64,000 nucleotides of DNA, from positions 165,073-229,072 of the IMG/VR virus record IMGVR_UViG_3300031994_002305; one strand, 5' to 3'. A program made the position numbers and the translations under genes. The notes beneath the pieces are model-generated. The model was given only the letters and a program-made list of their open reading frames with translations, was not told the origin of the DNA and ran no database searches. This document shows, piece after piece, positions 6,768 to 41,800 of the stretch (its first letter is position 1; every line of letters begins with the position of its first letter). This DNA is from a virus. Its lineage: Duplodnaviria > Heunggongvirae > Uroviricota > Caudoviricetes.

Positions 6768-7076
6768 ATGGGAGATACAGTTAATTATTGGAAAATTCCT
6801 AAGGAGCATATTATCAATAGACGTAATATGGGTTATATTTGGACTTATATAGGTCATTTTCCAATGTTTGAAGTTCGTAATAAAGCAAAAGAACTATATG
6901 AACAATATAAAAATGAATGGGAAGGTATTTTACTTCGTATAACTCGTACTAATGCATGGGATGAAACAATAAACTGTTATTACCTGTATTATAATGGAAA
7001 GAAATTTATAAAAGAACCTGATTACATCTTATTTGATAATAAGGATATTATGGAGTATCTTGAAGAAAATAAATAA
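6768..7076 (+). CDS. hypothetical protein
   Basis: ORF, 102 aa. Confidence 0.45.
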   Translation: MGDTVNYWKIPKEHIINRRNMGYIWTYIGHFPMFEVRNKAKELYEQYKNEWEGILLRITRTNAWDETINCYYLYYNGKKFIKEPDYILFDNKDIMEYLEENK

Positions 7077-7890: not shown

Positions 7891-7936
7891 AATATTATTT
7901 GAATTTTTGATAATTTGTTCTATATTATATATGTAA
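7891..7936 (+). promoter_or_regulatory. promoter cassette class A (variant -7: TAtaTATG)
   Basis: AATATTATTTGAATTTTT + 24 nt spacing + CTATATTATATATGTAATC. Ends 17 nt before ATG 7954. Confidence 0.5.
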
Positions 7937-17834: not shown

Positions 17835-17854
17835 TTTCTATATTATATTGTAAA
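17812..17854 (+). promoter_or_regulatory. promoter cassette class A (TTTGAA - N - CTATATTATATTGTAAA)
   Basis: Conserved core. Ends 13 nt before ATG 17867. Confidence 0.5.
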
Positions 17855-19027: not shown

Positions 19028-19065
19028 GTATATATATTTATTTTTATATATAAATTTATACTCTT

Positions 19066-19231: not shown

Positions 19232-19480
19232 ATGAAAGATTTAGTAAAAACTATTTTAGAGAAACAGGCAGAAAAAACGATGCAATTACCTGATTATTGT
19301 GATGTTGTAAAAATATCACCTAATGATTTTGATGGTAGTATTTCATTTTTAACTGTTGCTGATATTAAAGAAGATAAAAAATTGGAAAAGGTATTGGAGC
19401 TTGAACCTTGGGAATCAACTGTAATAGATGAAGATATCTATGTAATGATTATTGACCCAGAAGCATTAAATGAAAAATAA
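19232..19480 (+). CDS. small protein with N-terminal capsid-targeting-like tag (MKDLVKTILEK)
   Basis: The track start 19220 is a TTG. ATG 19232 gives the 'MKDxxxxI-x-E' tag shared by the downstream genes. Confidence 0.4.
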   Translation: MKDLVKTILEKQAEKTMQLPDYCDVVKISPNDFDGSISFLTVADIKEDKKLEKVLELEPWESTVIDEDIYVMIIDPEALNEK

Positions 19481-19704
19481 TGAAAGATATTAAAGAATAT
19501 ATATTAGAATCTTCAAAGAAATATAAGCAATACCAAGTATATTATAATGGAAGTCTTGATAAAACATTTACTGAAAATAGTAAAAAATGGAAATCAGATC
19601 CAAAAATAGGACAAGGTTGGTATTGTGGTGGAACAGTATTTAAAATTGTTAAGATAGAAGACAATAAAGTATATGTTGAAGAAGATAAAAATTGTCATCC
19701 ATGA
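19480..19704 (+). CDS. small protein with N-terminal tag MKDIKEYILES
   Basis: Canonical member of the tag family. The start overlaps the previous stop (TAATG). Confidence 0.4.
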   Translation: MKDIKEYILESSKKYKQYQVYYNGSLDKTFTENSKKWKSDPKIGQGWYCGGTVFKIVKIEDNKVYVEEDKNCHP

Positions 19705-19722
19705 AATCATTAAATAAATTTT

Positions 19723-20367
19723 ATGAAACAAATAACATCATATATTTTTGAAAAAATAAAAGAACTACCAAATTCTGTTAAAGGATTAATAGTTTTTGAT
19801 ATTGACGATACATTATTAAAAGTTGATCCTGCTTTAATGGGTGTTTATAAAAAGGAACCAGGTAAACAAGAAATTAGATTAACTACTGATGAGTTTGCTA
19901 AAGATCCTGATGCAGAAGACCCATCAAAGAAAAAATGGTTTGATTTTAGAGACTTTCAGGATCCAATAAAAGTATATAATTCTATAATTTCAGGAACTCC
20001 ATTAATTAAAAACTTGAAAATTATGGATGATTATATTAAAGCTGGATATGATTTTTGTTTCCTTACAGCTCGTGGTTGTGAAGAAACAATTAAAAAAGCT
20101 ATTGGAGATTTCTTGAAATTTAGAGATGAAGATGGCGCATTAAAAGAACTTGGTGATTCGTTTAAGAAAACATTTTCACATGCAGTTAATGATGAAATTA
20201 AGCAATATCCAGGTTCTAATGATGCTGAAAAGAAAGCGAAGATATTAATAAAACTTTGTAAAAAATATGATAGAGTGGTATTTGTAGATGATGACAATAA
20301 AAACATAAGTGCTGCTCGTGATTTGAATATTAAAAATCTTAAAGTAATTAAAGCTTGGGAAGATTAA
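19723..20367 (+). CDS. HAD-superfamily phosphatase-like protein with N-terminal tag (MKQITSYIFEK)
   Basis: 'GLIVFDIDDTLLK' is HAD motif I (DxDxT). T4 Pnkp phosphatase uses the same motif. Confidence 0.5.
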   Translation: MKQITSYIFEKIKELPNSVKGLIVFDIDDTLLKVDPALMGVYKKEPGKQEIRLTTDEFAKDPDAEDPSKKKWFDFRDFQDPIKVYNSIISGTPLIKNLKIMDDYIKAGYDFCFLTARGCEETIKKAIGDFLKFRDEDGALKELGDSFKKTFSHAVNDEIKQYPGSNDAEKKAKILIKLCKKYDRVVFVDDDNKNISAARDLNIKNLKVIKAWED

Positions 20368-20402
20368 AATTAAATAGAAAAAATTTAAATAATATTTACA
20401 AA

Positions 20403-20432
20403 AGATCTATATATCAATATAGGTCTTTTTTA
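20403..20432 (+). terminator. rho-independent terminator (agatctatat-atca-atataggtct + TTTTTT)
   Basis: 10-bp stem with one G-U pair and a T6 tail. Confidence 0.5.
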
Positions 20433-20457
20433 TTTTTATATATATATTATATGAATC

Positions 20458-20838
20458 ATGAAGCATTTACAAGAATATATAATTGAAACTTCATTAGAAA
20501 TTAAACAACAAAAATTTAATGGTGGAGGAAGGTTTTATTGTAATAAAGGAGATTTAGATTATACTGATGAAATTGAAATATATCCAGTTAATCATAATAA
20601 TTGTTTTGAACTTACTAATTTAACAGCATTTGAAAAAAACAAAGGTGTTGGAACTTTGTTATTAAACAAAATGATAGAATATGCTAAATCTCAAAATAAA
20701 GACATAGTTTTATATGCATCTCCACTTGATGATAAAAATGAAGATGATTTAATCAAATTTTATAAAAAGTTTGGATTTATTGAAGATATTAAAGCTCACG
20801 ATAAACATTGTTTAATTCTCCAAATTAATAAAGCATGA
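20458..20838 (+). CDS. GNAT-family N-acetyltransferase-like protein with N-terminal tag (MKHLQEYIIET)
   Basis: 'AFEKNKGVGTLLLNKMIEYAK ... FYKKFGF' matches the GNAT motif A/B pattern. Confidence 0.45.
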   Translation: MKHLQEYIIETSLEIKQQKFNGGGRFYCNKGDLDYTDEIEIYPVNHNNCFELTNLTAFEKNKGVGTLLLNKMIEYAKSQNKDIVLYASPLDDKNEDDLIKFYKKFGFIEDIKAHDKHCLILQINKA

Positions 20839-21755
20839 AAAAAGTCAATATCTGTCTTGGAAGATTCCAGCCATTTACATTAGGTCATTATAAAATGATT
20901 GAATATGGTTTTAAAGAAAATGGATTAACAACAGTTATATTAATGATTCATAACAAGAAGATGGATTCTAAACATCCATTTGATGATGAATTAATTCAAA
21001 AGGAAATGGAACTTATAAAAAATTCATGTCCTAATATTGAAGATACTATATATGTTGATAATGCAGATTTAGTTAAATTTGGACAGAAACTTAAAGAAAA
21101 AGAATACGAAGCTCAACTTTGGATAACGGGCAGTGATAGATTGACTAGTTATAAAAGAATGGCCGAAAATTCAAAATATCAAGAGCAAGGCGGATATCCT
21201 TCATCATTTACGACATTAGAAGTTCCTCGTACAGATGAAGACATATCTGCAACCAAAGTTAGAGAAGCAATCAATAATGATGATATTGATACATTTAAAA
21301 AGATGATGCCTAAAGGTTCAGAAAAACTATTTAATGAATTTAAAGAACAATTATCAAACATTAAAGAAGGTATGATGGCATTAAAAGATTATATAATTGA
21401 ATCTATAAGAATTGATGATTCTGATTTTAGTATTGCTAAACGATATGCAATGACTCATAAAAAGAAATATAAAAACAAAAAATCAGAATCTCAAGACAAG
21501 TATTTTTCAGAACAAGAAAAAGGTGAAATAATGAAAGATATGTGGGATAAAGATGGTTTATTTTATAAGTTTATGAAAGATAAAGTAAATCATTTAACCA
21601 ATAATGAAATTGGTGATTATCTTTATAATCAATGTCTTAATGATGATAGATGTACTGCAGAATTTGCTTCATATATTGCTGAAGTAATCGGTAGAAATAA
21701 TTTCAATATTAAACAAGTGCAAAAATTTATAAATACAGAAGATCTTAAAGGATAA
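20835..21755 (+). CDS. NMN/NaMN adenylyltransferase-like (cytidylyltransferase-fold) protein with degenerate HxGH motif and extra C-terminal domain
   Basis: 'CLGRFQPFTLGH' resembles NadM/NadR NMNAT 'GRFQPFHxGH', with the first His replaced by Thr. 'ISATKVREA' resembles the ISSTxIR motif. An internal tag-like 'MMALKDYIIESIRID' occurs at about aa 176. Confidence 0.45.
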   Translation: MKKVNICLGRFQPFTLGHYKMIEYGFKENGLTTVILMIHNKKMDSKHPFDDELIQKEMELIKNSCPNIEDTIYVDNADLVKFGQKLKEKEYEAQLWITGSDRLTSYKRMAENSKYQEQGGYPSSFTTLEVPRTDEDISATKVREAINNDDIDTFKKMMPKGSEKLFNEFKEQLSNIKEGMMALKDYIIESIRIDDSDFSIAKRYAMTHKKKYKNKKSESQDKYFSEQEKGEIMKDMWDKDGLFYKFMKDKVNHLTNNEIGDYLYNQCLNDDRCTAEFASYIAEVIGRNNFNIKQVQKFINTEDLKG

Positions 21756-21796
21756 TAATGAAATTACTTAAATATATACATTAGAATTAATAAGAA

Positions 21797-22027
21797 ATGA
21801 AACAATTAGTTACAAAAATAAATGAAGTAAAGTCTAACGAATTTTCAATTTATTTTAATTATGATAAAAATTCAATAGCTATCCATAAATATGGAGATGG
21901 GAATGATATTGATAAAACTGGTTTTAAAACAATTGATGAAGCTGTAAAAGTTATATACAAAAAATATAATAAAGCTTATATTAATATTATACCAAGTGAA
22001 AAACTTATTGAATATATAATTAAATAA
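21797..22027 (+). CDS. small protein with N-terminal tag (MKQLVTKINEV)
   Basis: Member of the tag family. Confidence 0.4.
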   Translation: MKQLVTKINEVKSNEFSIYFNYDKNSIAIHKYGDGNDIDKTGFKTIDEAVKVIYKKYNKAYINIIPSEKLIEYIIK

Positions 22028-22028
22028 T

Positions 22029-22916
22029 ATGAAACATATATTAGATTATATTAAGGAATCACTTAATATATTTGAAGGAGGTAATGCAGTTAAATCAGAG
22101 CCAATTCCTGCAGTTATAGCTCCTAAAGTATATGATGAAATTGAAAAGAAAGTTCATGCTGTATCAAAATTTAAAGATATAGATATGGCAGCTTTAGGCA
22201 GCATTGGAAAAAAAGCAGATGATCAAACTAATGGTGATATTGATGTTGCTGTAAGAGTTGATACGAAAGATGAATTAAATGAAATTGTCGATACTTGTTT
22301 TAAAGATTGTGAAATCAATTATAATACAATGAAGACAATTACTTCATTTGGTTATCCATATAATATAGATGGATATAAAGGAATTGCTCAAGTTGATTTT
22401 ATGATAGTTCAAAAGATGGATTGGGCTAAAGCATATTATCATTCACCAAACCTTAAGACTGGTGAATCAAAATATAAAGGAGCTATTCGTACTGCCATGC
22501 TTGCTGATATAATTGCATGCATACCAGTTCCTGATGTTAAAGATGAATATTTTGAAGATGGTATTACAGTAAAACGTAAATGGAAACATACGTTTAATAC
22601 TGAAGGTGTATTTGTTCAATTAATAGATTACTGTGGAAAGAAAGGTGAGCCAGTTAAAAATGGCAAGAAATTAAAAGAATTTGAAAAACTTGTTACTAAT
22701 GATCCACTTAATATGGTGAGATTTATATTTGGTGAAAATGGAACATTAGCAGACATTAATTCAGCAGAATCATTATGGAAAGCAATTCATGATAATTCAA
22801 AATTTAAGTGGGGAGATGAAGTCTTATATAATACAGAAAAGAAAATTATAACAGATAAAATGCTTATTGAAAAAATCAATAAAGAAGATTTTAAATGTAC
22901 ACAATATAAAGAATAG
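22029..22916 (+). CDS. polymerase-beta-superfamily nucleotidyltransferase with N-terminal tag (MKHILDYIKES)
   Basis: 'ALGSIGKKADDQTNGDIDVAV ... QVDFMI' matches the hG[GS]x(9-13)DhD...D/E catalytic triad pattern of pol-beta NTases. The gene ends with TAG. Confidence 0.5.
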   Translation: MKHILDYIKESLNIFEGGNAVKSEPIPAVIAPKVYDEIEKKVHAVSKFKDIDMAALGSIGKKADDQTNGDIDVAVRVDTKDELNEIVDTCFKDCEINYNTMKTITSFGYPYNIDGYKGIAQVDFMIVQKMDWAKAYYHSPNLKTGESKYKGAIRTAMLADIIACIPVPDVKDEYFEDGITVKRKWKHTFNTEGVFVQLIDYCGKKGEPVKNGKKLKEFEKLVTNDPLNMVRFIFGENGTLADINSAESLWKAIHDNSKFKWGDEVLYNTEKKIITDKMLIEKINKEDFKCTQYKE

Positions 22917-22941
22917 TTATTTACTTAAAATTTAATTGAAT

Positions 22942-24330
22942 ATGGATCATTTGGTTGATAAATATCTTAAGAAACCTGAAGTAGTTAAAGAACTGTTTCA
23001 AAAAGAAGTTTCAATAAGTCTTAAAGTTGATGGTGCTGCTTTTCAGATATCTTGCGATAATAATAATATAACTTATCATAAGCGTGGTGGCAGTTCAAAA
23101 TCATTAGGTCCTATTATTGACGAATATACACAATTAATGAGAAAGAATGTAAATGATGCTATTGAATATTTTGAAGCTAAGAAAGATATATTAAAGAAAT
23201 ATAAATTCTATGCTATTGAAATGTTTAATGATTCTTACATTCTTTTAACTGTTATTGATAATAGCAATAATATAATAGATGATCCAAATGTTTTAAAAAA
23301 TATTGCTAAATCATTGGGTATTGATTGCGTTCCAATTTTATTTAATGGAGTTCTTAAATCTGAACAAATTGAATCATTAGTTTCAATGATGACATTAGCT
23401 CCCAGTACAACAGATAATGTTTATAAAAAATATTTAACAGATATTTTTGGAAAGGGAGAATATGAAAAGTTTTTAAATGGAGATGAAATTGAAGGTATTG
23501 TTTTAACATGGAATATAGATGATAAAATACAGCAATATAAAATTATCAACCCTGCATTCAAAACTCGTCACGATAAAGAAATTAAAGATGGAAATGAAGC
23601 ATTCAAAAAAGAAATAGAAGAGCTTACTGAATTGTTTGAATTCTTTTATGAATCATTAAATAAATATGGTTCATATCAATCAGATAATTGGATTACTAAC
23701 CTGAATAAGAATTTTATTAATATTATTAATAAAGAAGAATCTAAAATTAAAGAATTTGACAATAAAATTCAACCTAAATTTAAAGATTTCTTCACATTAC
23801 AAATTAATAAAGTTTCAACTGATATTAAAGAATTAATTGATAAATATGGAGATAATATGAAATTTTATTATGAAAAGTATTTGTTATTATTCAATAAACC
23901 TAAGAAACGTAATTTTACAATATCTAAAGAATTTCAAATCAAAGTAAATTCTTTAATAGAAAAACTACAAGATAAAAACGAATCATTAAAAACATATACA
24001 ATACGTAAGATGAAAACTATTAATGAATATATTAATGAAGAAAAAAAGACAACTGGTGCAGGTTGTGCTCAAATGATCCAAACAATTATAGATGAATTAA
24101 AAACTCATGATGATTGTAACTATGATAAAGAAAAAAATGAATGGACAGGAAAAGATGGCGAAATGTGGAAATCTGCTGGTCAATTCTTGTACGATTATTT
24201 GTCAGAATTAAATCAAAATGACTTTAGAAAAATTGTAGATTCAATGGGTTGGAAAAAATGGATTGCAGATATTGACGATATTAATCAAGCTGAAATTGGA
24301 TTATGTCTTGCATTAGAACTAAAAAATTAA
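22942..24330 (+). CDS. ATP-dependent RNA/DNA ligase-family protein (nucleotidyltransferase motifs I, IV, V)
   Basis: 'ISLKVDGAAF' is motif I (KxDG). 'DEIEGIVLTWN' is motif IV (EGhVh). 'QQYKIINPAFK' is motif V. The start is moved from track TTG 22936 to ATG 22942. Confidence 0.45.
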   Translation: MDHLVDKYLKKPEVVKELFQKEVSISLKVDGAAFQISCDNNNITYHKRGGSSKSLGPIIDEYTQLMRKNVNDAIEYFEAKKDILKKYKFYAIEMFNDSYILLTVIDNSNNIIDDPNVLKNIAKSLGIDCVPILFNGVLKSEQIESLVSMMTLAPSTTDNVYKKYLTDIFGKGEYEKFLNGDEIEGIVLTWNIDDKIQQYKIINPAFKTRHDKEIKDGNEAFKKEIEELTELFEFFYESLNKYGSYQSDNWITNLNKNFINIINKEESKIKEFDNKIQPKFKDFFTLQINKVSTDIKELIDKYGDNMKFYYEKYLLLFNKPKKRNFTISKEFQIKVNSLIEKLQDKNESLKTYTIRKMKTINEYINEEKKTTGAGCAQMIQTIIDELKTHDDCNYDKEKNEWTGKDGEMWKSAGQFLYDYLSELNQNDFRKIVDSMGWKKWIADIDDINQAEIGLCLALELKN

Positions 24331-24343
24331 TTATGAATATATT

Positions 24344-24580
24344 ATGAAAAATTTAATAGAAAAAATAAATGAAGGTGCTTCTTCAGAAGTTTATTTTAAT
24401 ATTACACTTCAATTTTTAAAAGAATTAAAGAAATTAGCTTCTACTAATCAAATTTATGATGAGGACCCAGATCACATAATTGTTGCTAATGTTAATTTAA
24501 AATTAAAAAATGATAAAGTAGAATCTATTGAAATTAAAGATGCTGATGAAGATAAATGGAAAGAAATAAAAGTATATTAA
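24344..24580 (+). CDS. small protein with N-terminal tag (MKNLIEKINEG)
   Basis: Tag family. Confidence 0.4.
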   Translation: MKNLIEKINEGASSEVYFNITLQFLKELKKLASTNQIYDEDPDHIIVANVNLKLKNDKVESIEIKDADEDKWKEIKVY

Positions 24581-24586
24581 TTTATT

Positions 24587-25018
24587 ATGAAAGATATTAT
24601 TGAAAAAATGAGATTTTCTCAAAATTCACTTAACCAATATATATTAGAATCAGAAAGTCAAAAGATTGATGAAGAAGCTTACGTAATTATTGAAATTTCA
24701 TTAAATGATATACAGAGCGATAATTATTTAAGTAAGTGCTTACATGAAACTTATAAAGATAGACTCATTATAATTAGAGGTGACATGGGTATTAGATATT
24801 ATATGTATATCTTAAAAGTTCGTGAAGTTAAAAACTGTTATGCAGAATATCCTTTTAGAAAAAATTGGCCAAATAGAAATTGTTGGTTAGTACCTGATGA
24901 ACTTAAAGATGCAGATGAGAAAACCATAAAAGAATATATTAAAAAGAATAGTGATAAGGTTGATTGGGATGATATTCTTAAGAAAGATAATAAAGTACAA
25001 ATAAATGTTATGCGATAA
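24587..25018 (+). CDS. protein with N-terminal tag (MKDIIEKM ... QYILESES)
   Basis: Tag family; the I-L-E motif is displaced to aa 19-21. Confidence 0.4.
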   Translation: MKDIIEKMRFSQNSLNQYILESESQKIDEEAYVIIEISLNDIQSDNYLSKCLHETYKDRLIIIRGDMGIRYYMYILKVREVKNCYAEYPFRKNWPNRNCWLVPDELKDADEKTIKEYIKKNSDKVDWDDILKKDNKVQINVMR

Positions 25019-25019
25019 T

Positions 25020-25331
25020 ATGAAAGACATTATATCAAAAATTAATGAATCAAAAGATTCTCCATTATATCTTAAAACATTAGCACTTATTGATGCCCTT
25101 AAAGATTGGGTTGATTATGGTATTTCACAAGATGCAAATAATTCAGATTCTCCATATATTAAAAAATTTAAAAAGGATATTGAAGATTTTATAAAGAATG
25201 CAATTATAAACATGGATTATACTGATGGTATTGTGGATAAATTAATTAAAGCATGTAATATAAAAGTTGACTCAGAAGATGATTGGAGTAAAATACAAGA
25301 TGCTTTTGTAAATTATATTACTAAGAAATAA
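25020..25331 (+). CDS. small protein with N-terminal tag MKDIISKINES (start corrected)
   Basis: The track start 25005 is an internal ATG of the previous gene. ATG 25020 follows its stop (TAATATG) and restores the tag. Confidence 0.4.
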   Translation: MKDIISKINESKDSPLYLKTLALIDALKDWVDYGISQDANNSDSPYIKKFKKDIEDFIKNAIINMDYTDGIVDKLIKACNIKVDSEDDWSKIQDAFVNYITKK

Positions 25332-25332
25332 T

Positions 25333-25806
25333 ATGAAAGACATTACATCATACATAACAGAATCACAAGAAAAAATGAGAATTGGTTCTGATAATTTATA
25401 TAAATCTGGATTGTATTATGAAGATACAAAGAATTATACTTATAGTCCAGATAATTTTGTAGAAGAATTTTCTAAAGCTTGGTATCCTGGTGAAGGAGAA
25501 AAAATGGGCGCATATTACATTGTCAATTTCTGTAAAAAGAATTATAATGTACGTATATATAGAGCAAGTATGATTGGTAATAGAGAAGGTAAAAATGACC
25601 ATTTTCAAATAGCTTGGCTTCCTATGGATTCAAAATTACGTACAGTAATACCTGAAGAACCAACTGAAGAAATAACAGAATATCGTACAAATGGAGGATT
25701 CCATGGTTCAGAAAAAAATATTATGTGGGTTGGTAATAAGATAAAATCTCGTAAGGATTTTGCAGAAATTGTATATAAGTATATAAAATCTATATTCGAA
25801 AAATAA
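25333..25806 (+). CDS. protein with N-terminal tag MKDITSYITES
   Basis: Tag family. Confidence 0.45.
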   Translation: MKDITSYITESQEKMRIGSDNLYKSGLYYEDTKNYTYSPDNFVEEFSKAWYPGEGEKMGAYYIVNFCKKNYNVRIYRASMIGNREGKNDHFQIAWLPMDSKLRTVIPEEPTEEITEYRTNGGFHGSEKNIMWVGNKIKSRKDFAEIVYKYIKSIFEK

Positions 25807-25823
25807 ATTTAAAAATATTAAAT

Positions 25824-26132
25824 ATGAAAGATATTAAAAAATTTATATTGGAATCATCAGAGTCTACTCAATCTGAAGATCTTCAGGAAGAAATTGGATT
25901 AGCTCTTAAAGAATTTGGCAATATCAGAAATGGATTTAAAATGACTCCAATTGATGATATTAAAGATGCAATGTATAAATTAGGTTTTGACTTTGATGAA
26001 GAAAATTCAGAGGATGATAAATTAGAATTTGTTGGTGAATATATTGATACTAAATATGAAGTAACTTTATATGCATCAGATCATGTAAAAGGTAAATTTA
26101 AAATTATAAATATTACAGTTTGTGAAGCATGA
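25824..26132 (+). CDS. acidic small protein with N-terminal tag MKDIKKFILES
   Basis: Tag family. Confidence 0.4.
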   Translation: MKDIKKFILESSESTQSEDLQEEIGLALKEFGNIRNGFKMTPIDDIKDAMYKLGFDFDEENSEDDKLEFVGEYIDTKYEVTLYASDHVKGKFKIINITVCEA

Positions 26133-26172
26133 AAGATTATTTTGATGATAAAAATAAATCAACACATAAATA

Positions 26173-26448
26173 ATGAAAGATTTAAAAACATATATTAATG
26201 AAGCTAACAAACAAACTGAATTAACTGGTGAATCATGGGTTGCTATTGAAGTTATAATGCCTAATGAAAATTCAGAAGATGGTGAAAAGGAAAAACGTTC
26301 AAAAAGAGTTGTTAGTTATAATACATATATGGATATGAAAAATAGTGGTAAAACATCAAGTGATAAAAGAATAATATCTGTTACTACTATTGGCCCATCA
26401 GTTGCTTCTAAAGAAAAAGCACAAGAATATATTTCAAATAAGAAATAA
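26173..26448 (+). CDS. small protein with N-terminal tag MKDLKTYINEA
   Basis: Tag family, last member of the run. Confidence 0.4.
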   Translation: MKDLKTYINEANKQTELTGESWVAIEVIMPNENSEDGEKEKRSKRVVSYNTYMDMKNSGKTSSDKRIISVTTIGPSVASKEKAQEYISNKK

Positions 26449-28041: not shown

Positions 28042-28087
28042 AATATTATTTGAATTTTATTTTAAAGGTACTATATTATAATTGTAA
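28042..28087 (+). promoter_or_regulatory. promoter cassette class A variant (AATATTATTTGAATTTT - N - CTATATTATAATTGTAA)
   Basis: Same 24-nt TTTG to TAtaATTG spacing. Lies upstream of the higher-GC gene 28122. Confidence 0.4.
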
Positions 28088-28477: not shown

Positions 28478-28519
28478 ATTTGAATATTTTTTATTTTTTT
28501 CTATATTATATTTTGTAAA
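28478..28519 (+). promoter_or_regulatory. promoter cassette class A (TTTGAA - 24 nt - TAtaTTTTG; core CTATATTATATTTTGTAAA)
   Basis: Conserved core. Ends about 19 nt before ATG 28539. Confidence 0.5.
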
Positions 28520-30940: not shown

Positions 30941-33067
30941 ATGACAGGAACAATTTTAACATTGTGTTTAATTGGTGGTGGTGTACTTTTGTTTGTACTC
31001 ACAATTTGGGGAATTCTTTCACGTTATCGCCGTTCAGCACCTGATGAACTTTTGGTTGTGTTCGGTAAATCTGGAAAGATTACAATTCAGGAAAAGGTAT
31101 TTGATAATCCTGAAGATCCTACAAAGTTTAAGATGGTTGACAAGACCGTAACAGTACCTTCTAAGATTATTCAGGGTGGTGGTACATTTGTTTGGCCTAT
31201 TATTCAGGATTGGAAGAAAATGTCAATGAAGCCATTACAGATTAGTATTACTGTTGATGGTATTGATTCTCAAGCTATTCCTATGCACTTGCCTGTAGTA
31301 TTGACTACTGCTATCGCAAGAGATAAGGAGATTCAACAAAATGCCGCAACACGTTTCTTAAGCGTAACAGCTGCTGAAGCACAATCGCAAATTTCTGAAA
31401 TCCTTAAGGGTGAGACTCGTGCAATTATGGCCACAATGACCATTGAACAGATTAACGCTGACCGTACGATTTTCCTTGGTAAGGTTCGTGAATCTCTTGA
31501 ACAGGAATTAGCAAAGGTTGGTTATGAATTAACTAACATTAATATTTCGGAAATTACTGATGACGCTAACTATATTAAGAACTTAGGTCAGAAGGCTGCT
31601 ACTAAGGCTCAGGCATCTGCTGAAGCAGATATTGCTGAACAGAAGAAACAAGGAAATATTAAAATTGCAAATACTAAGAAGGAAGAGGAGATTGCTGTAG
31701 CAGATGCTGAACGTGAGAAGCAGGTTACTGTAAGTCAAACTCGTCAGGAACAGGAAGTAAAGGTTGCTGCAATTGAGAGGGATAAGCAAATTCAATTGGC
31801 TGAAGCAGAAAAGGAACGTGAATCTGGAATTGCTTCTCAAGAAGCTGAAAAGGCTGCTAATATTGCTGAGGCTCAAGCAATGGCAGAATCTAAGAAAGCT
31901 GAAGCTAAGGCAAAACAGGTAGCAAATGTATCTGCTGCTGATGCTGATGCTGCATCTAAACAAGCTGAGGCTGATGCTCGTAAGGTAGCTGCTGTGGCTG
32001 CTCGTAAGGCAGAAGCCGAATCTAATAAGGCAAAATCTGAAGCTGACCAGGCTAAGGCTGTTGCTACTGCACAAGCTGATGCTGAGGCAACTGAGAATGA
32101 GCAGGAAGCTTTGAAGCAGACTCGTATTGCTCAGGCTAACCAACAGAAGGAAGCTGAAATTATCAAGGCTACCCAAGAGAAGGAAGCTAAGCAGGCTGAG
32201 TATGAATCTAATAAGAGACAGAAAAAAGCTGAACAAGACAAGAAGGCTGGTGTCGCAGAGCAGATGTCAAAGATTGAAGTAGCACAAGCTCGTGCTAAGG
32301 CTGCACAGGCTGAAGCTGATGCTGTAAAGGTCGGTGAGACTGCTAAGGTTGAAGCTGAGATGTCAGTTAAGAAAACACAGCAGGAACGTCAGTTGGAAGT
32401 TAATGAAGCTGAGGCTAAGGCTAATGAAGCTAAGTTGAATGCTACTGAAATTATTCCTGCACAGAAGGCTAAGGAACGTGTAGTTATTGAGGCTCAGGCC
32501 ACAAAGCAGCAAGCTGAACTTGAAGCTGAAGCTATTAAGGCAAAGATTCTTCGTGAGGCTGAGGCTGAAGCAGAAAAGATTCGTTTGGCAAAGAATGCTG
32601 AAGCTGAAGGTGAAAAGAATATTTTGATGGCTCAGGCTGAAGGTAAGAGAGCTTCCCTATTGGCTGAGGCTGAGGCAGAACAGCAGAAAGCATTGGCTCC
32701 TGCTATGGCTCTTGAACGAATGGTTGCAGCTGTAGGTGGTAATCCTGATTTGGTTGTACAATATAAGATGGTTGACCAGTATAAGGGTATTGCTGAGGCT
32801 CAGGCTAAGGTACTTGAACATGTACAACTCGGTAATGTTACTGTTTACGGTGATAAGAATACGGGTGCTGACTTTGCTAAGAGCTTCGTATCTAATTTCG
32901 CTCCTGCATTGAGTATGATTAATGATGGTGTTAAGGATCAATTCAAGGGTCTATTCGGAATTGGTCAAAACAAACAGGAAACACTTCCTACACCTGAGGA
33001 ACCAAAATCAACAAAGGATAAGAAAAAGACAACAAAGAAGGATACTGACTTCGAAGATGTAGAGTAA
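30941..33067 (+). CDS. flotillin-like SPFH/band-7 protein with very long Ala/Glu/Lys-rich coiled-coil region
   Basis: N-terminus has a TM segment followed by 'SRYRRSAPDELLVVFGKSGK', the flotillin YqiK/FloT signature ('RY..a.P.e.lvv.G'). The SPFH domain is followed by roughly 400 aa of EA-repeat coiled coil. GC is markedly higher (about 45%) than the surroundings. Confidence 0.6.
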   Translation: MTGTILTLCLIGGGVLLFVLTIWGILSRYRRSAPDELLVVFGKSGKITIQEKVFDNPEDPTKFKMVDKTVTVPSKIIQGGGTFVWPIIQDWKKMSMKPLQISITVDGIDSQAIPMHLPVVLTTAIARDKEIQQNAATRFLSVTAAEAQSQISEILKGETRAIMATMTIEQINADRTIFLGKVRESLEQELAKVGYELTNINISEITDDANYIKNLGQKAATKAQASAEADIAEQKKQGNIKIANTKKEEEIAVADAEREKQVTVSQTRQEQEVKVAAIERDKQIQLAEAEKERESGIASQEAEKAANIAEAQAMAESKKAEAKAKQVANVSAADADAASKQAEADARKVAAVAARKAEAESNKAKSEADQAKAVATAQADAEATENEQEALKQTRIAQANQQKEAEIIKATQEKEAKQAEYESNKRQKKAEQDKKAGVAEQMSKIEVAQARAKAAQAEADAVKVGETAKVEAEMSVKKTQQERQLEVNEAEAKANEAKLNATEIIPAQKAKERVVIEAQATKQQAELEAEAIKAKILREAEAEAEKIRLAKNAEAEGEKNILMAQAEGKRASLLAEAEAEQQKALAPAMALERMVAAVGGNPDLVVQYKMVDQYKGIAEAQAKVLEHVQLGNVTVYGDKNTGADFAKSFVSNFAPALSMINDGVKDQFKGLFGIGQNKQETLPTPEEPKSTKDKKKTTKKDTDFEDVE
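31560..32700 (+). repeat. low-complexity GCT/GAA-rich coding repeats (flotillin EA-rich coiled coil)
   Basis: Repeated 'gctgaagct / aaggct' units. They cause the spurious antisense ORFs 31583-32236 and 32657-32941. Confidence 0.5.
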
Positions 33068-33894: not shown

Positions 33895-36800
33895 ATGGCA
33901 AATTATGTCGATAATGATGTTAATTTTACTGGTATAAAAAATCCAAAAATTCAAATTGGTGGAATAATAGGAGTTGATAAATATAGTACTGATGCAATTG
34001 GAAATATCGTACAAAATGTTCCAGTAATTAATGCTATTGACATTGATTGGAATAATGCTTCAGCTAATGGTATTGGACCTATTAAAACAACTGGTGATTT
34101 AATTAAAGCCATAGCAAATGGTGGTGGAGGAGATCCAAATTCCATACCAATTTATGATACTGATACAGTAGAAAATTTACGAACAAATAACCAATTACCT
34201 AATAAATTTATTAGTGTTGATAATTCTTTAGATTCAAACAACAGTTTAAATATGATTCATTATTTATTATCTGTTGTTAATGGATTACAACAAGAAATAT
34301 CAAAAATCAAGAATACATTTAATAAAGGTATATATTCGTATAATGGAGAAGCTACATATATGTCAACAACAGTTGCACAATATGGGGATGACGAAGAACC
34401 ATTATGGGCAATTGATGAATCAGAATTAGATGAAATTGAAGGATTTGAATTTGATTATGAAAATAATAATAATTTTGAAGATAATGGATTATTAGCTAAT
34501 CAAAAAGAAAATAGAATGTATGCTTATATTACATCTTCTTCAAATATTAATATTGTATTAAGATCAAAAACTAATAATATATTTGAATTTAATTTAACGG
34601 ATTATATTACATGTGATAAATGTAATATAATGATATTAATTAGTCGTAAGCCAGAAAATAAAGAATATCCTATTAATTTTATTTACATAGATGTTACTGA
34701 TTATGTAACAAATAAAAAACTATTATCGGGATATATTAATAATGATAAACAAATAATCATAAATGAAACTGAAGTAGGATCAAATTATTATTTTAGTAAT
34801 ATTAATTTACTTAGTGGAAATTATGAAAAGTTTAACATATATGTTCAAAATAGATCTTTTGGTAATGAAATAGTTCCAGTTACACCAGATGAAGATGAAA
34901 CTTCATATAGAGTTGCTCACATAGCAATAAGAACTGTTAAAAACGCCAATATATTAAAGAAAATAAGAGAACAACTTGTTAATGGCGAATTTATTGTTAA
35001 TGAAGAAACAGAAAAATTATATTTAAAGATAAATAATAAAATTATAAATATAGGTGCTGCAAGTGGTGGTGATGACATGAACACAGATCCTGTTAACCCA
35101 GATCCTGACACACCAGACGATACAGATAATATGGAAAATTACGAAATTATTAAAGCTCTTGAAACACAAGGAGTATTATCACTTATATTCAAGAATGCTT
35201 CAATTGTTGACATATCACAAAAATATGATCCTTCCAATATTGAATCATATAAACTTAATAGTATTGGTTCTGTAAGATTTACTCACGAAGATACTGGTAA
35301 AACATATGAATATAAAACTAATGCTTATGGTGAACTGGAAAGTAAGTTAATTGAAGATTCAACAACACTTGCTGAAAAATTACAAGGAACTACATTATTC
35401 AGTGATTTTAAATCATCAAGAGGATTCGTTGGTCAATTAGGTCATGAATTAGCACAACGTGATGGTAAATCATTATCATATAATGCAGATTATGGTTTAT
35501 ATGCTGACCGTATAAAGATTGCATCAATTTATGGACCACTTGATACTGATGTAACTTATGGATGTTCACATGCATTTATTGAATTAGAAAATACAAGTAA
35601 TATTGATTTTAATTTACAAGGATGTCAATTGCATTATATTAAAAAATCAGATGAATCTAATTATTATGTTAAATATTCATTAGATTTAACTGGTATTATT
35701 CCTGCAGGAAGTACTTATTTGATAAGAGGTAAAAAGTATATTAAAAACGATGAAGATTCAAATTGTTTTATTCATGTTAATAACTATGACCAAGAATGGT
35801 ATATTAATGGAGAATTATTAGATTTAACAATGAATAAGAATAATGGGTCATATGTTTTAATTATGTCATATCATGGAAAAATTAAAACAGCAAATTCATA
35901 TATTGATTTCTTGTCTCCTACAGATATGTTATATAAATTAGGTTTAGATATTAATGAATCTACAATTGCAGCAAATACAGATTTAGGATTATATTTAGGT
36001 ACAACAGAAAAGAAAGGAAGTTTAACAATATGTGCACCTAATGATGGTGAAACAAAAATAGGTGAAATTATTTGTCAGGATGCAAACGATAAAGCTATTA
36101 AAAATGCACCATTAGTTTATGCTAAAGGTTTTATTGATGCATTAGCATTTAATAAAACTGCATTCGGTATTACATCAGCATTTGATAGCTTATCATCTAA
36201 CACAATATGTCGTGGCACATATGTATTAGATCCAGCAAAGCAAGCTTATAACTCTTTTACAATGAGAGATAGTTCTAGAAACAGATGGGCTAAAAAGGGT
36301 AATGACTATCAATATTTAAAATTAGAAAAAAGATATATAGAATTTCCTAAGACTATAACAACTCGTGATGTTGATTATTATGCACCTAAAGCTTCTTTTG
36401 AACATAAAAATGTAATAACAGATAAAACACATTTTGATAAGAAAAAACCTAATGCAGTAACAGTATCTTATGGTGCAAATGTTTATACAACTAGATGTTT
36501 TAACTGGTTATCAGCCGCTAATTTAGATGAATATGTTTGGATATATGATTCTAATGGAAATCAATTAGGAGTATTTGAATCATATAAGAAAGTAGATACT
36601 GCTATAACACAATCTAATTCATTCCCACGTAGAAAAGAATTTTCAGTAGATGTTAATAATATTGTCTATTGTGATTATAGAATTAATGATGTTATAGATA
36701 GAAGTAATAAAAACAAAGATGTAACATACAAAAAGTATGCAACAGCTCCACGTGCATGTGGTATATTCGCAGGATCAAATGATTTCTTTGTATCTCATAA

Positions 36801-38739
36801 ATGTATTATAGATATTGTTGAAAATCCTGTTAATGAAGAAACAACATACTCATATATTGTCGGTCAAGCTGATAAGAATAAAAAACCTTTAGAAGGATAT
36901 TGTTCTGAAAGAAGATACTTTACATTATATCCTGATACATATACACCAGTTATATATCAAATAACAGACCAGCAAGGATTCCATTGGATTGAATATCAAG
37001 TTTGGGCTGCTGCTGCTGAAAGTTTAAATCAAAAGATTATTTATGAAATGGATGCGGCACGTGATGGAAATGGACATGGTATTATGCCTATCATTATTAA
37101 TACTGGTGATGCTACACAATCAGGTTCTCGTATTAATGAATGGTTAGATTATTTTATTGCTGGTGATTGCTTATTTAATCATTTTGAACAAAATAATATT
37201 GTTGGTAATAATGACTTAAATGGTACTGATATTCAGGCATTAGGTACGGGTGATGACCCAGGTAAATCAAATGCTTATTATTATTACTTATTTAATTGTA
37301 ATGAAGTCAATAATTTCTTTGGTGGTGATGTAAATCCACATTATCCAATTGTAAATAATACTTATGTACCATCATTATATTATTTAGACACTAATAATTT
37401 TAGATTAGTAATGTGTAATTCTGAATTAACTCCTATTAACTGTCGTGATTGGTTTAATTTAAGATGTACTCCATATGAAGGTGATAATACAGAATATACA
37501 ATTAATATTTATACAGGATTTAATTTAGTTGGTAGTAAAACAGATAGTCCTGAAAAATATGTGGCTGATGCATTTGGATTTACACCTATTTATACATTAT
37601 TATGGCATGCATTTAATAAATTAGAAAATGGTAATCGTAAATGCATAGCAGCTTGTCATGAAATGCCATTTACAGTTGTAACAAATGCATGTTGTTCAGA
37701 ACCAAATCAATTAGAAAGATTTAGAAGTATGTCTGATGCTGCATCTCCAGGTAAATTAATTGGTAGTCATATGAATCAAATGGAGCCAACAGAAAATGGA
37801 GCAGGTGTTTATTGGTTTAGTAGATTACTTGAAAGTATGGGAGTTAAATTATGTATTGGTGGTCATAAACATACATACGCAATATCATACCCAGTTAGAG
37901 AATATTATAAATATTATAAAAATGGTACTTTAGTTAGTAGTTTAACAGATGGTCCAATGCAAATGGATGAAACATTGGCATTCGAAGAACGTGATTCAAT
38001 AAACGATTATAAAGTTCTTTGGAAATGGAAAGCTTCAGCTCCAACAAATAATCGTAATGTAGAATACCCTTGGTGTGAAACTGCATTAAAGGATAGTAAG
38101 GAAAAACTTTATTTAGATGGTGATAAGAATACATCTGAAACAACAGGTATGATTAACTGGTCTAAATTACCAATAACATATATGGAAAATACAATAAATT
38201 CAGATCTTTTACCAATTAATAAATTTTATCCTTCTAAACCATTATACGTAGATGACGGATATCGTGATAGTGCAGTTACTTATATAATGTGTCAAGCAAC
38301 TGGATATAAATTAACATCAAATAAAGAATTACCTACTCCTAACCAAAAATTCTCAAGAATTATACCAGTAACAAGTAATGGTTCTGATGGAACAGATACG
38401 CCAGATAATAACCAAAAATTCCCAATGTATATTAAATATGTTGTAGATAATTTAGGACAATGCAATGTATATTTAGCAAGAGCAAAAAATATATTTAATG
38501 GTAAGTATAAATTTACACAAATTGCTTATGGAACTAAAGATATTGAATGGACATATTTAATTGATAAAGCTCAATATGTTAAGAGTTCTGATGAATCAAA
38601 ATTGGATGTAGTTTCAAAATATAATGATTCAACAACACAAGCAGAAATAGATGAAGTTAAACTAAGTGCTGAAACTTACGATAACTATGGATTATGGTTA
38701 AAATCTGAAAAGAAAATGATTCCAACAATTAATATTTAA
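33895..38739 (+). CDS. giant virion structural protein (1614 aa), putative tail fibre/baseplate-associated
   Basis: Very long N/Y/T-rich ORF. It is terminated by a strong hairpin at 38762 and sits next to a 2830-aa ORF and the capsid/tail module. No enzymatic motif found. Confidence 0.55.
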   Translation: MANYVDNDVNFTGIKNPKIQIGGIIGVDKYSTDAIGNIVQNVPVINAIDIDWNNASANGIGPIKTTGDLIKAIANGGGGDPNSIPIYDTDTVENLRTNNQLPNKFISVDNSLDSNNSLNMIHYLLSVVNGLQQEISKIKNTFNKGIYSYNGEATYMSTTVAQYGDDEEPLWAIDESELDEIEGFEFDYENNNNFEDNGLLANQKENRMYAYITSSSNINIVLRSKTNNIFEFNLTDYITCDKCNIMILISRKPENKEYPINFIYIDVTDYVTNKKLLSGYINNDKQIIINETEVGSNYYFSNINLLSGNYEKFNIYVQNRSFGNEIVPVTPDEDETSYRVAHIAIRTVKNANILKKIREQLVNGEFIVNEETEKLYLKINNKIINIGAASGGDDMNTDPVNPDPDTPDDTDNMENYEIIKALETQGVLSLIFKNASIVDISQKYDPSNIESYKLNSIGSVRFTHEDTGKTYEYKTNAYGELESKLIEDSTTLAEKLQGTTLFSDFKSSRGFVGQLGHELAQRDGKSLSYNADYGLYADRIKIASIYGPLDTDVTYGCSHAFIELENTSNIDFNLQGCQLHYIKKSDESNYYVKYSLDLTGIIPAGSTYLIRGKKYIKNDEDSNCFIHVNNYDQEWYINGELLDLTMNKNNGSYVLIMSYHGKIKTANSYIDFLSPTDMLYKLGLDINESTIAANTDLGLYLGTTEKKGSLTICAPNDGETKIGEIICQDANDKAIKNAPLVYAKGFIDALAFNKTAFGITSAFDSLSSNTICRGTYVLDPAKQAYNSFTMRDSSRNRWAKKGNDYQYLKLEKRYIEFPKTITTRDVDYYAPKASFEHKNVITDKTHFDKKKPNAVTVSYGANVYTTRCFNWLSAANLDEYVWIYDSNGNQLGVFESYKKVDTAITQSNSFPRRKEFSVDVNNIVYCDYRINDVIDRSNKNKDVTYKKYATAPRACGIFAGSNDFFVSHKCIIDIVENPVNEETTYSYIVGQADKNKKPLEGYCSERRYFTLYPDTYTPVIYQITDQQGFHWIEYQVWAAAAESLNQKIIYEMDAARDGNGHGIMPIIINTGDATQSGSRINEWLDYFIAGDCLFNHFEQNNIVGNNDLNGTDIQALGTGDDPGKSNAYYYYLFNCNEVNNFFGGDVNPHYPIVNNTYVPSLYYLDTNNFRLVMCNSELTPINCRDWFNLRCTPYEGDNTEYTINIYTGFNLVGSKTDSPEKYVADAFGFTPIYTLLWHAFNKLENGNRKCIAACHEMPFTVVTNACCSEPNQLERFRSMSDAASPGKLIGSHMNQMEPTENGAGVYWFSRLLESMGVKLCIGGHKHTYAISYPVREYYKYYKNGTLVSSLTDGPMQMDETLAFEERDSINDYKVLWKWKASAPTNNRNVEYPWCETALKDSKEKLYLDGDKNTSETTGMINWSKLPITYMENTINSDLLPINKFYPSKPLYVDDGYRDSAVTYIMCQATGYKLTSNKELPTPNQKFSRIIPVTSNGSDGTDTPDNNQKFPMYIKYVVDNLGQCNVYLARAKNIFNGKYKFTQIAYGTKDIEWTYLIDKAQYVKSSDESKLDVVSKYNDSTTQAEIDEVKLSAETYDNYGLWLKSEKKMIPTINI

Positions 38740-38833: not shown

Positions 38834-41800
38834 ATGAAATTACATAATAACGAAAATGATTCATTTATAATAACATCAAATGACATATTAGTAAATGGTG
38901 ATAAATCTGATGTTTTAACTAACGTTATTAATAAGCAAGAAGATAAGTTAACAAGTTTAGAACGAAATATCAAATGGCTTTATAAATATGGAGGTACAGG
39001 ATCAAAAGGTTCTGGATCATCTAATGGTGTTTCGTTTAGTGTAGATGCAAATGTATTATTTGGTAATATAATTATTCAAAAATCTATTAATCAAAAATTA
39101 ATATTATCAAATAGTAATAAAAAATATGAAACATTATCAATAAGTTTAAATAAAACAAACATATTGAATATTTATCAAGCTAGAATTACTGGTACTGGAT
39201 TTTCACAAAGTAAATGGTATGATTTAACACAAGATAATGATTATGGATTATCATTCAATGTACCTGTTGATGATACTGGAACAATAAAAATAGAAATTAA
39301 AGGTACAAGTACATTAACTGGTGATAACGATAATGCAACATATTTATTTACATATATCAAAAATCCTTATGTATTTAATTTATCATTAATAGATAATAAT
39401 GATAAAAACATATTAGATGGAGATAATTTATATGTTAATGAAGCAATAGAAAAGGGAGTAAACTTATTTATTGATTATAACATAGTTTCATCAAAACAAA
39501 TATCATATGAAATAACATGTGACGAAACTATGTTAACTAATTATGAAGGAATAATTAATGATAGTGAACATGGTGTAGGTTTAGGTAATTTGTCTATTCC
39601 TTTTAATTCATCATTTATATCAAATGACAATAATTATGGATCTCATACAATTAACATTAAATTTAAAATAGATCCTGATGAGTCATTAGGAATATCAAAT
39701 GGACAGATTATTACTAAGAATATATCATTTACATATATTCCTAATAATCAAATATTCTTTAAAATAGAATCAACAAATAATAAAGCAAAAATATATAAAT
39801 ACTCAGAAACAAATTATAATAATGCAATTATTCAATTTAATTTATATAAAAGTTATTATGAGTATTTTAAAATTCTTGAAAATGAACAAGAATTAGACCC
39901 AGTTATTCGTGAAGGTTTGATTAATACATTAGTAGATGAATCATTAAGACCTTCAATAACAGATAATCAATTAAAAGATGTAATTGAAAATAAATTAAAC
40001 GAAATTGAATCAGAACTTTATATATTTAATGTAGGATCTTTACAATTATATTTACAAGCATATTTAGGATCAAATACATTAAATACGGTAGATGTTTCAT
40101 ATATTTTAGATGATGGTGAAAATATAATTGATAATGAATTATTAAGTTCATTACAATATAGAAAACGTCAAATGATTAATATACCAGTTCAAGAAGAAGG
40201 TGTATATAAATTATGTATTTATTCGAAGAATCAAACTGAGCAACAACGTATTTATTACTATTTTGCTGCATTTGATAAAAATAGTGGAATTAACTGGTAT
40301 AATGCTGATGTTGAATTTAATGAAATTGATTTATTCTTTAAAGAAGGAAAAATAGGAACACATCATGAAACTAATTTAAGTCTTAATTGTTTAAATACAA
40401 TTAAAAATTATGAAAGTGTTCAAAAGATTCAAAAATATGCTAATGGAGAACCTTCACAATTATTTGATATTAGTAATGAATTAAATTTATTAGCTCAACC
40501 AGATTGTGACATAATGTTATCATTTGGTATTCAATATTCATATATTAATAGTGATAATGTAAAGTTAATGTCAATTTTAACAAATAACAATAATAGCTCA
40601 TTAAATCTTGACATATATCAAAATAGAATTAATGAATATAATTCATCAAATACATTAGCAAAAATATTCATACCAAAGGAACATAATTATGCTCCTTCAA
40701 ATAATGAAAACTATCATTTATTAACATTATATAAAAGATATGTTTATGAAACAAATTCACCTTATTATGAAATAATAATTTATATTGATGGATGTCCTGA
40801 AGCAGCATTTAAAAACTTTGTTAAAGATTCATCATGTTGGTCTTCAGTATATTTAAATAACTCAAATTTTTCATTGAACTTTTTTGAGTTAGCATATTTT
40901 CAACATAATAAAAATAGTTTAAAAAGATTTGACAAAAATGAAACATCAGGAACAGTTACACAAAATAAAGTAACATATCTTGATGATATAGCAATATCTG
41001 AATATTATTATAAGTATATAAGTACACATAAATCTTTAGGTAATATTATTTCATTACTTGCTAATCTTCGTAATTTCAAAGAAACAGATTATGGAATGAT
41101 AGAAGTTGCTTCAAGAAATGATATTGATTCAATTGCAAATGGTATTGATATTCCAGTTTTACTTTTAGAATATACAGATCAATCTGATAATGAATTTGTT
41201 AATTGGTTTACTAAATCATATAAAGAAACCGAATTAACAAAAGATAAAAAGAAATTAGATTACATATATTATTCAAGTGGTTTAAATAAACTTTCACAAA
41301 TTGATTTACCCGATGAATTAGCTGGTTCATATTGGTATGCTGCATTGCAAGGTTCTTCTACAGGTGAATTATTTGATAAAAACTTAACATTAGGTATTAA
41401 TAACCAAACACCTGGTCGTATGGGTATATTTACACCTAATTTCTATGACGTTAATGAAACTTTATTTAACAGTAATAATTTAACAGAAGAAGAACAAACA
41501 ATTGTATCAAAGGCAAAAAATTCATTCTTACCAGAAACTGCATATACATTAAAGGCAGACGTTGTTGACTCTTCACATAGTAACAATACTGCTGTTGGTG
41601 CATTCGTTAATGCAAATACAACACAATTTAATATATTATTTGATGGTGGTAATACAAATAAAGGTAATAATAAATATGTTAATTATATTAAAAACTGTTT
41701 GTTAGGTTTCCCTGTATTAGTATTTGCTAATGTTAACAGAAATGGTAAATCAACATATTATTTTCTTGGTATATACAATTTCAACTTAGGTCGTGATTCA

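Follow-up and report, generated by a model that had tools for sequence, protein, structure and literature searches.

Why a run of consecutive phage genes with different products should carry the same short peptide is the question raised by a 64,000-nucleotide stretch of a tailed phage (Caudoviricetes; IMG/VR record IMGVR_UViG_3300031994_002305, positions 165,073 to 229,072). The whole of this stretch is referred to as the window, and the peptide, carried by a block of 14 genes at 19232-26448, as the tag. The original prediction, made from the window sequence, was that the tag is a capsid-targeting sequence (CTS) like that of phage T4, by which enzymes are packaged in the head and injected into the host. 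Judged by what can be computed from sequences, the tag has the properties of a T4-type CTS, and the moderately probable explanation is that it is a T4-type capsid-targeting and cleavage sequence, a greatly expanded counterpart of the T4 peptide MKTYQEFIAE that would be usable at either end of a protein.

Copies of the tag in the window

The block was analysed with an open reading frame (ORF) listing, Pfam, regular expressions and a scoring matrix. The peptide M-K-[DSNT]-[IL]-x-x-[YF]-I-x-E-[SKA] was present in exactly one copy in each of the 14 consecutive ORFs at 19232-26448 (+ strand), 12 copies being N-terminal and two internal, and a 15th, outlying copy was found on a nucleoside diphosphate kinase (NDK) gene at 4280. 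In gene order, the block encodes proteins of 82 and 74 amino acids (aa), a HAD phosphatase, a GNAT acetyltransferase, an NMNAT-like enzyme with a fused module, a 76-aa protein, a Pol-beta-fold nucleotidyltransferase, an RNA ligase with a fused module, and proteins of 78, 143, 103, 157, 102 and 91 aa.

The twelve N-terminal peptides listed in the original prediction were all recovered at their coordinates on the + strand by ORF listing, translation and regular-expression scan. Two of them open the block, MKDLVKTILEK (19232-19264, matrix score 10.1) and MKDIKEYILES (19480-19512, score 21.0), followed by MKQITSYIFEK on the HAD phosphatase (19723-19755), in which the Pfam Hydrolase match starts from residue 22, and MKHLQEYIIET on the GNAT acetyltransferase (20458-20490; Pfam, regular expression and matrix). 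MKHILDYIKES (22029-22061) is carried by the Pol-beta-fold nucleotidyltransferase, which was assigned by homologue comparison and AlphaFold2. MKQLVTKINEV (21797-21829), MKNLIEKINEG (24344-24376), MKDIISKINES (25020-25052), MKDITSYITES (25333-25365), MKDIKKFILES (25824-25856) and MKDLKTYINEA (26173-26205) were identified by regular expression and matrix. The remaining copy (24587-24652), with the highest score of all (21.6), is split: MKDIIEK is followed by a 7-residue insert, MRFSQNS, and then by SLNQYILES (24626-24652; residues 14-22), and this real core of the tag in ORF 24587 had been missed in the prediction.

The two internal copies are MMALKDYIIES at the C-terminal boundary of the NMNAT-like domain (21372-21404 in ORF 20835-21755, + strand, score 18.9), which had been predicted, and MKTINEYINEE after the RNA-ligase domain (24010-24042 in ORF 22942-24330, + strand, score 20.1), which had not; with the latter copy, the run first described as about 13 tagged genes holds and its count is amended to 14. 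The outlying copy on the NDK gene is present as predicted, in the degenerate form MIPLSQYIKET (4280-4312, + strand, score 12.9), and the Pfam NDK match starts from residue 19. Among the NDK homologues, one relative has the full tag MKTIVQYIKES and another has none.

Scanning the 64-kb window in six frames with a regular expression found the full motif in the block only, with no match on the opposite strand or elsewhere. When the matrix of tag positions 4-11 was run over the 17,466 positions in window proteins, the 15 copies took ranks 1-15, with scores of 10.1-21.6 against 9.9 for the best background position. The recurrence of the tag is far beyond chance. Third codon positions vary among the copies (GAT/GAC, ATT/ATA, TCT/TCA/ACT) and the upstream DNA is not conserved, indicating that selection acts on the peptide.

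The window has a G+C content of 27%, with genes almost all on the + strand; no Shine-Dalgarno sequences were found upstream of window genes, and no tRNA genes were found. A DNA-level search with the block matched none of the GenBank phages, and PHROGs gave nothing for the ten small tagged proteins.

A separable module at either protein end

The window forms part of an ENA metagenome contig (ERZ27256871, 156 kb), and near-identical genes were found on contigs of up to ~456 kb. Capsid-protein identity to uncultured huge phages, Tenacibaculum phages pT24 and PTm1, Sphingomonas phage PAU and Lak phages is only 30-38%, and closer relatives in IMG/VR have a capsid identity of 48-93%. Many large contigs carry 6-13 tagged genes in a block, with gene content varying even among close relatives, and 7 of the 14 window block proteins had no homologue in the sampled relative loci.

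From the IMG/VR relatives and from loci found by a back-translated tag pattern, 202 unique tagged ORFs were collected. The collecting regular expression required M1, K2, E10 and residue classes at positions 4, 7 and 8 (I, L, M or V at position 8); the independent observations in the logo are the choices within the allowed classes and positions 3, 5, 6, 9 and 11 onward, and E10 in 202 of 202 ORFs is not among them. The strict DNA pattern scan of IMG/VR also gave chance matches, in giant-virus bins and unrelated higher-G+C contigs, and single-hit loci were left out of the scoring matrix. The logo reads M1 K2 [SDNT]3 [IL]4 x x [YF]7 I8 x E10 [SKA]11, and conservation is gone beyond position 11. 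Position 8 was I in 190 of the 202 ORFs, and the unconstrained position 11 was S, A or G in 130.

From residue 13 to the end, the tagged ORFs fell into 110 BLAST families, 74 of them singletons. A Pfam domain was found in only ~8 of 94 family representatives (DUF285, AAA_33 P-loop kinase, NUDIX, NDK, HAD, cytidylyltransferase and GNAT). The original prediction emphasized enzymatic diversity; ~90% of the tagged families are without a recognisable domain. In the window, Pfam bore out the domain calls: the carriers have the unrelated folds HAD, GNAT, cytidylyltransferase-like, RNA ligase and NDK, and the domain matches begin past the tag. ORF 21797 gave a weak LPD5 match (E = 0.006), below the Pfam cut-off.

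The 22029 product (295 residues), which had been called a pol-beta nucleotidyltransferase, was modelled with AlphaFold2 on 24 homologues (mean pLDDT 92), and the model has a Pol-beta/lambda-like nucleotidyltransferase fold, with a helix at residues 4-11 (pLDDT ~67), a disordered linker at 12-18 (pLDDT <50) and a folded domain from about residue 20. The tag starts most of the 591 database homologues of this protein, and the homologues P0037 and P0039 are without it and begin directly at the domain. That the motif might be the start of a shared paralogous domain, an objection raised with the prediction itself, was rejected on the end of the logo at residue 11, the 110 families, the tagless homologues and the helix-linker-fold arrangement of the model. 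The tag is a separable module of 10-11 residues on about 100 unrelated families.

The prediction had described the tag as N-terminal and trimmed off. N-terminal placement was observed in 191 of the 202 copies, but the picture is incomplete, since two enzymes, the RNA ligase and the NMNAT-like one, have conserved C-terminal and inter-domain copies. The NMNAT-like enzyme of at least 7 relatives ends ...KEG[ML]xSLKNYILES[LI]K and then stops, with the variants SLK(N/K/E)YI(L/T)ES plus 2-4 residues (LK, IK or IIKQ) before the stop; elsewhere, the window included, an extra module is fused in frame past the tag. In the RNA ligase, the tag lies past about residue 355 and is followed either by a stop (…IKALNNYILESKYK) or by differing fused modules. 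Ending on the tag is the usual form of the NMNAT-like enzyme in relatives and is seen for the RNA ligase in closer relatives. The modules fused after the tag in the two window ORFs are free-standing tagged ORFs in relatives, and NMNAT-tag-nucleotidyltransferase fusions exist (P0034, P0035). Conserved C-terminal copies without Met, such as LKSLKNYILESIK then stop and IKALNNYILESKYK then stop, keep the core [IL]xx[YF]IxES, indicating that these copies cannot be translation starts and that the peptide functions at either protein end. As read from these sequences, the tag is a conserved unit of N-termini, C-termini and domain junctions.

Two further arrangements were recorded. One ORF in a sampled locus (L072:975-2396) has two tandem tags at one N-terminus (MKSIRQYISESLNNSFTMKSIIQYITEK...) and follows an NMNAT-like domain in the same frame. 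In the window, ORF 6768-7076 has a tag-like C-terminus, ...NKDIMEYLEENK then stop (7038-7067), with a weak matrix score of 4.2, and no homologue with which to test this end was present among the fetched loci.

The tag is also found in a cultured phage, Tenacibaculum phage pT24 (LC168164), where at least three ORFs carry it, as MRDITHYIKEE (BPT24_130), MRDIRDYIKES (BPT24_126) and MKKISIYLEEK (BPT24_102); the tag-like N-termini are at 39386 and 41600 in locus L096 and at 26378 (- strand) in L097. In BPT24_126, the Met of the tag lies 27 nt inside the annotated coding sequence, so the annotated start is probably wrong. The phage is described in a genome announcement (PMC5502841), and literature searches on capsid targeting in metagenomes or jumbo phages, on rumen jumbo phages and on pT24 turned up no description of the tag in huge phages.

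The T4 capsid-targeting sequence and the head genes

The CTS that T4 internal proteins carry was reportedly described by Mullaney and Black in 1996. It is a peptide of ~10 residues, MKTYQEFIAE, that directs internal proteins to the scaffolding core and that gp21 removes; foreign proteins become packaged when joined to it, and related propeptides are present on T4 gp24 and Alt (PMC8442874, PMC5694885, PMC3012670). T-even phages carry diverse internal proteins having only the CTS in common (PMC3012670). To compare the tag with this sequence, a matrix from 185 tags of the phage clade was run on 943 Met-initiated candidates from six frames of T4 50-150 kb. The internal proteins ipIII and ipII ranked 1st and 2nd, gp24 (MAKINELLRES) 4th, ipI 19th and Alt 150th, giving the resemblance claimed in the original prediction a quantitative footing. 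The I-x-E ending claimed there was also observed, followed by Ser in the tag. In T4 gp23 the corresponding region reads ...SFLTEAEIGG, which is cut after Glu65 and is likewise an aromatic-L-x-E site. The characterised gp21-family proteases all cut after Glu, and that of SPN3US prefers Ser at P1' (PMC5694885, PMC10052503).

In common with the T4 CTS, the tag has about 10 residues, with M1, K2, an aromatic residue 7, Ile8 and Glu10 and then a small residue. It is N-terminal in most copies and, like the CTS, is borne by unrelated, fast-evolving accessory proteins of a phage with a gp21-type protease and a gp23-type capsid protein. Unlike in T4, one block has 14 carriers and the sampled relatives ~110 families, some carriers are recognisable enzymes, a repeat-containing scaffold is fused to the protease, and the tag is also placed at C-termini and between fused domains. 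The predicted cargo is mostly acidic, in contrast to the T4 internal proteins, for which a highly basic character is described (PMC8442874).

A prohead protease/scaffold fusion had been predicted at 47480, and it was borne out by Pfam and by a profile search. The protease domain (47480-48013, + strand; ORF 47480-49093) is a homologue of T4 gp21: its only meaningful profile match was PDB 5JBL, the T4 gp21 protease (E = 2.9e-4), GELEHP (47693-47710) and SSRGAG (47867-47884) align with the His and Ser catalytic motifs GELNHP and ASRGLG of gp21, and Pfam Peptidase_S80 gave 22.5 bits, just under the 23.4 cut-off. A candidate self-cleavage site is the invariant L-N-E, with S or G after it, where this domain meets the scaffold (47999-48013). 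The remainder of the ORF makes up the scaffold, which is acidic and coiled and has one isolated and seven tandem 12-residue repeats, VQNW[VI]xEE[FY]APE (48281-48664, + strand), which are conserved in 13 relatives in 6-10 copies. With their aromatic-aliphatic-x-Glu pattern, these repeats are candidate cleavage or docking motifs. In the ~18,000 residues of the window, [YFW][ILV]xE[SAGTEK] occurred 26 times, 12 in tag copies (10 N-terminal, 2 internal), nine in the scaffold and five elsewhere. The W-rich repeats (48416-48664) also trigger a spurious Pfam 'Trp_leader1' match (E = 1e-6), which is an annotation trap.

The capsid protein matches Pfam Gp23 (4.2e-28) and has a conserved N-terminal segment of ~40 residues ending ...NWVSQYAAIHEIHE|S, a variable Gly/Pro/Ala linker and a conserved core. 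The sequence AAIHEIHES (49290-49316, + strand) includes a candidate I-x-E|S maturation site, supported by conservation. Scaffold repeats, of the form W-V-x-x-E-F-A-P, are also present in phage pT24, whose capsid protein contains I-T-E-S sites. In relatives, tagged ORFs of ~65 aa were found in which the tag is followed by a copy of the capsid N-arm, ATPxNTxGMGNP...GSGDIP, and a basic tail; these proteins may be capsid-lining or DNA-binding internal proteins. Such ORFs are in L086 (- strand, ~3735), L032 (~1089) and L021 (~1000), and read LFATPMNTIGMGNPSAPS...GSGDIP with the tail KRRKKFRRYKI.

Directly upstream of the protease-scaffold gene are two giant ORFs, 33895-38739 (1614 aa) and 38834-47326 (2830 aa), for which no PHROG match was found (Pfam was not run on them); in pT24, a 3229-aa ORF adjoins the capsid gene. 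Between the tagged block and the head genes, a 708-aa protein (30941-33067) with a hydrophobic start has a Band_7/SPFH-type domain by precomputed Pfam and a PHROG 'lipoprotein' match.

The giant myoviruses phiKZ, 201phi2-1 and SPN3US are comparable in that their gp21-family protease cleaves behind Glu and favours Ser at P1'. In these phages, dozens of head-internal proteins are delivered to the host, and gp175/gp245 process at (S/A/G)-x-E (PMC5694885, PMC10052503). Their propeptides are mostly long (111-254 residues) and share no short tag, and the residue at P3 is small (Ala, Ser or Gly), whereas the tag has 10-11 residues and Ile at P3; assignment of the tag to this class of propeptides of >100 residues was rejected. 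The window capsid protein is also distant from theirs (~30% identity or less).

Encapsulin cargo-loading peptides are short, N- or C-terminal, and bring diverse enzymes into the lumen of an HK97-fold shell. They differ from the tag in being uncleaved and without sequence resemblance to it, and in serving a shell that holds no genome and delivers no cargo to another cell. In the passage of PMC7824862 that cites Iyer et al., the polyvalent proteins of phages and conjugative elements have diverse enzymatic domains, including GNAT and nucleotide-directed enzymes, and are delivered with DNA. The in-frame fusions NMNAT-tag-nucleotidyltransferase and RNA-ligase-tag-module resemble miniature polyvalent proteins, but polyvalent proteins are single giant polypeptides, and here many small genes have a tag each.

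The motif TATTTTTATWT was found 14 times in the window compared with 3.9 expected, almost always in intergenic DNA, with + strand positions at 11390, 13663, 14776, 19039, 20431, 26486, 47389, 47431, 49122, 51107 and 54287. The capsid, protease, sheath and tube genes have it upstream, as do the dNMP kinase and lysin-like genes, and relatives retain the core of the motif upstream of the capsid gene. The motif is a candidate for a phage-specific promoter of middle or late genes. Heading the block, TATTTTTATAT (19039-19049, + strand) ends 17 nt 5' of the ATG of ORF 19066, and a second in-block copy (20431-20441, + strand) is placed 5' of 20458. Inside the block, in the stretch 20368-20457, a terminator-like hairpin, aaaagatctatatatcaatataggtctttttt, has the TATTTTTATAT motif immediately after it, so that the block appears to be at least two transcription units. 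Co-expression of the tagged genes with the head genes is only suggested by these motifs.

A second promoter-like class, TTTGAATTTTT...TCTATATTATA(TTTG), was observed at 6256-6266, 7919-7929, 17837-17847, 28070-28080 and 28500-28510, upstream of ORFs 6283, 7954, 17867, 28122 and 28539. It resembles the Bacteroidota promoter (-33 TTTG / -7 TAnnTTTG), which would be consistent with a Bacteroidota host and with early genes transcribed by its polymerase. The sole stretch of opposite orientation in the window, a minus-strand cluster at 57515-62606 (ORFs of 123, 247, 599, 284, 169 and 172 aa), coincides with a GC-skew reversal.

Proposed role of the tag and its alternatives

If the tag is a T4-type capsid-targeting and cleavage sequence, the following course of events is predicted. 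The tagged genes would be expressed together with the head genes, and the amphipathic tag helix would dock each protein into the procapsid scaffolding core, which would be built of the protease-scaffold fusion protein together with the propeptide at the N-terminus of the capsid protein. The gp21-type protease would cut after Glu10 (aromatic P4, Ile P3, Glu P1, Ser P1'), freeing N-terminal tags and splitting in-frame fusions such as NMNAT-tag-module and RNA-ligase-tag-module. The matured proteins would remain in the head alongside the DNA until infection, when they would pass into the host. Docking, cleavage, virion retention, ejection and an anti-defence role are inferred steps, and by analogy with T4, this huge phage probably packages and injects a large and fast-changing set of enzymes.

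Several observations weigh against the capsid-targeting explanation. A C-terminal tag is not removable by a cut after its Glu. The pI is 4.2-6.8 in 11 of the 16 tag-bearing ORFs scored (the tag-like ORF 6768 included), compared with the basic T4 internal proteins, and some tagged enzymes (NDK, NMNAT-like, P-loop kinase and NUDIX) have obvious cytoplasmic roles. Distinct tagged genes are very numerous, with ~20 in 69 kb of one relative. In the head genes, the candidate site of the capsid protein has no aromatic residue at P4, and the scaffold repeats were rejected as equivalents of the tag, as the tag matrix scores them low and their resemblance is at the pattern level only. The promoter argument is weak, since TATTTTTATWT also precedes the dNMP kinase gene; the census of relatives was not discriminating (motif B before 17 tagged and 98 untagged ORFs, motif A before 1 and 18), and promoter class failed there as a separator of tagged from early genes.

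Part of these observations would be accommodated if the tag were a docking or processing peptide outside the capsid, recognised by a cytoplasmic hub, chaperone or protease, with carriers that are not packaged, for example in a replication/repair factory, in timed degradation or in polyprotein-style cleavage of fusions. Placement at either end and between domains fits a generic binding or cleavage peptide; the acidic cargo, the more than 100 carrier families and the many metabolic or repair enzymes that need cytoplasmic substrates also speak for this reading. This alternative is nevertheless considered unlikely, since the similarity is specifically to the experimentally defined T4 CTS, and the tag ends in [ILV]-x-E plus a small residue, the cut pattern (inspected, not scored) of gp21-type proteases, which are only known inside proheads. 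The tagged capsid N-arm mimics in relatives also argue against it, and no candidate cytoplasmic hub was found in the window with PHROGs.

A far smaller chance is given to a nucleic-acid-level element with an incidental peptide, either an AT-rich initiation ramp for a host without Shine-Dalgarno sequences or a short homology for cassette shuffling. The missing Shine-Dalgarno sequences would suit the former, and blocks that are highly variable between close relatives (half of the window block without sampled homologues) and modules that occur both fused and free-standing would suit such an element in general. However, synonymous sites vary while amino acids are kept, and the C-terminal copies without a start Met are conserved, and on these two grounds the translation-start or recombination-element idea was rejected. 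Fusions also preserve the reading frame, the copies are not similar enough in DNA for homologous recombination, and any AT-rich codons would do for a ramp, yet Y7, I8 and E10 are nearly invariant (E10 and the classes at 4, 7 and 8 being pre-set by the search). The start of a shared paralogous domain, or chance and composition in an AT-rich genome where MK starts are common, has a negligible probability given conservation that is nil past residue 11, carriers spanning HAD, GNAT, NDK, NUDIX, RNA ligase and Pol-beta folds, and 15 copies at the top of the matrix ranking with no opposite-strand match; like the nucleic-acid element, it is essentially excluded.

The differences from T4 are the number of carriers, the enzyme cargo, the C-terminal and inter-domain use, and the protease-repeat-scaffold fusion. 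A wider picture is put forward more tentatively: in a clade of uncultivated rumen- or gut-type huge phages (contigs to ~450 kb, probably with Bacteroidota hosts), a T4-like 10-residue tag usable at either end may bring dozens of unrelated proteins with rapid exchange, among them enzymes of RNA repair, nucleotide metabolism and an NAD-related kind, into the capsid, where the prohead protease may cut fusions in the manner of a polyprotein. If true, no injected proteome known would be larger or more modular, and the tag would amount to a natural plug-and-play system for loading cargo. If the tag acts as in T4, injected arsenals can number dozens of proteins in a genome and be exchanged in the manner of cassettes. 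The mix of RNA ligase, Pnk-like kinase, HAD phosphatase, NMNAT-like enzyme, NUDIX, NDK and GNAT suggests repair or counter-defence immediately upon entry. With the C-terminal and inter-domain copies, the T4 CTS concept would widen to a cargo peptide independent of position, which is relevant to engineering phage capsids as protein-delivery vehicles, and the same tag in cultured pT24 allows the idea to be tested directly. The whole packaged and injected protein set of a group of ungrown huge phages, otherwise invisible in metagenomes, could then be identified by a simple sequence rule.

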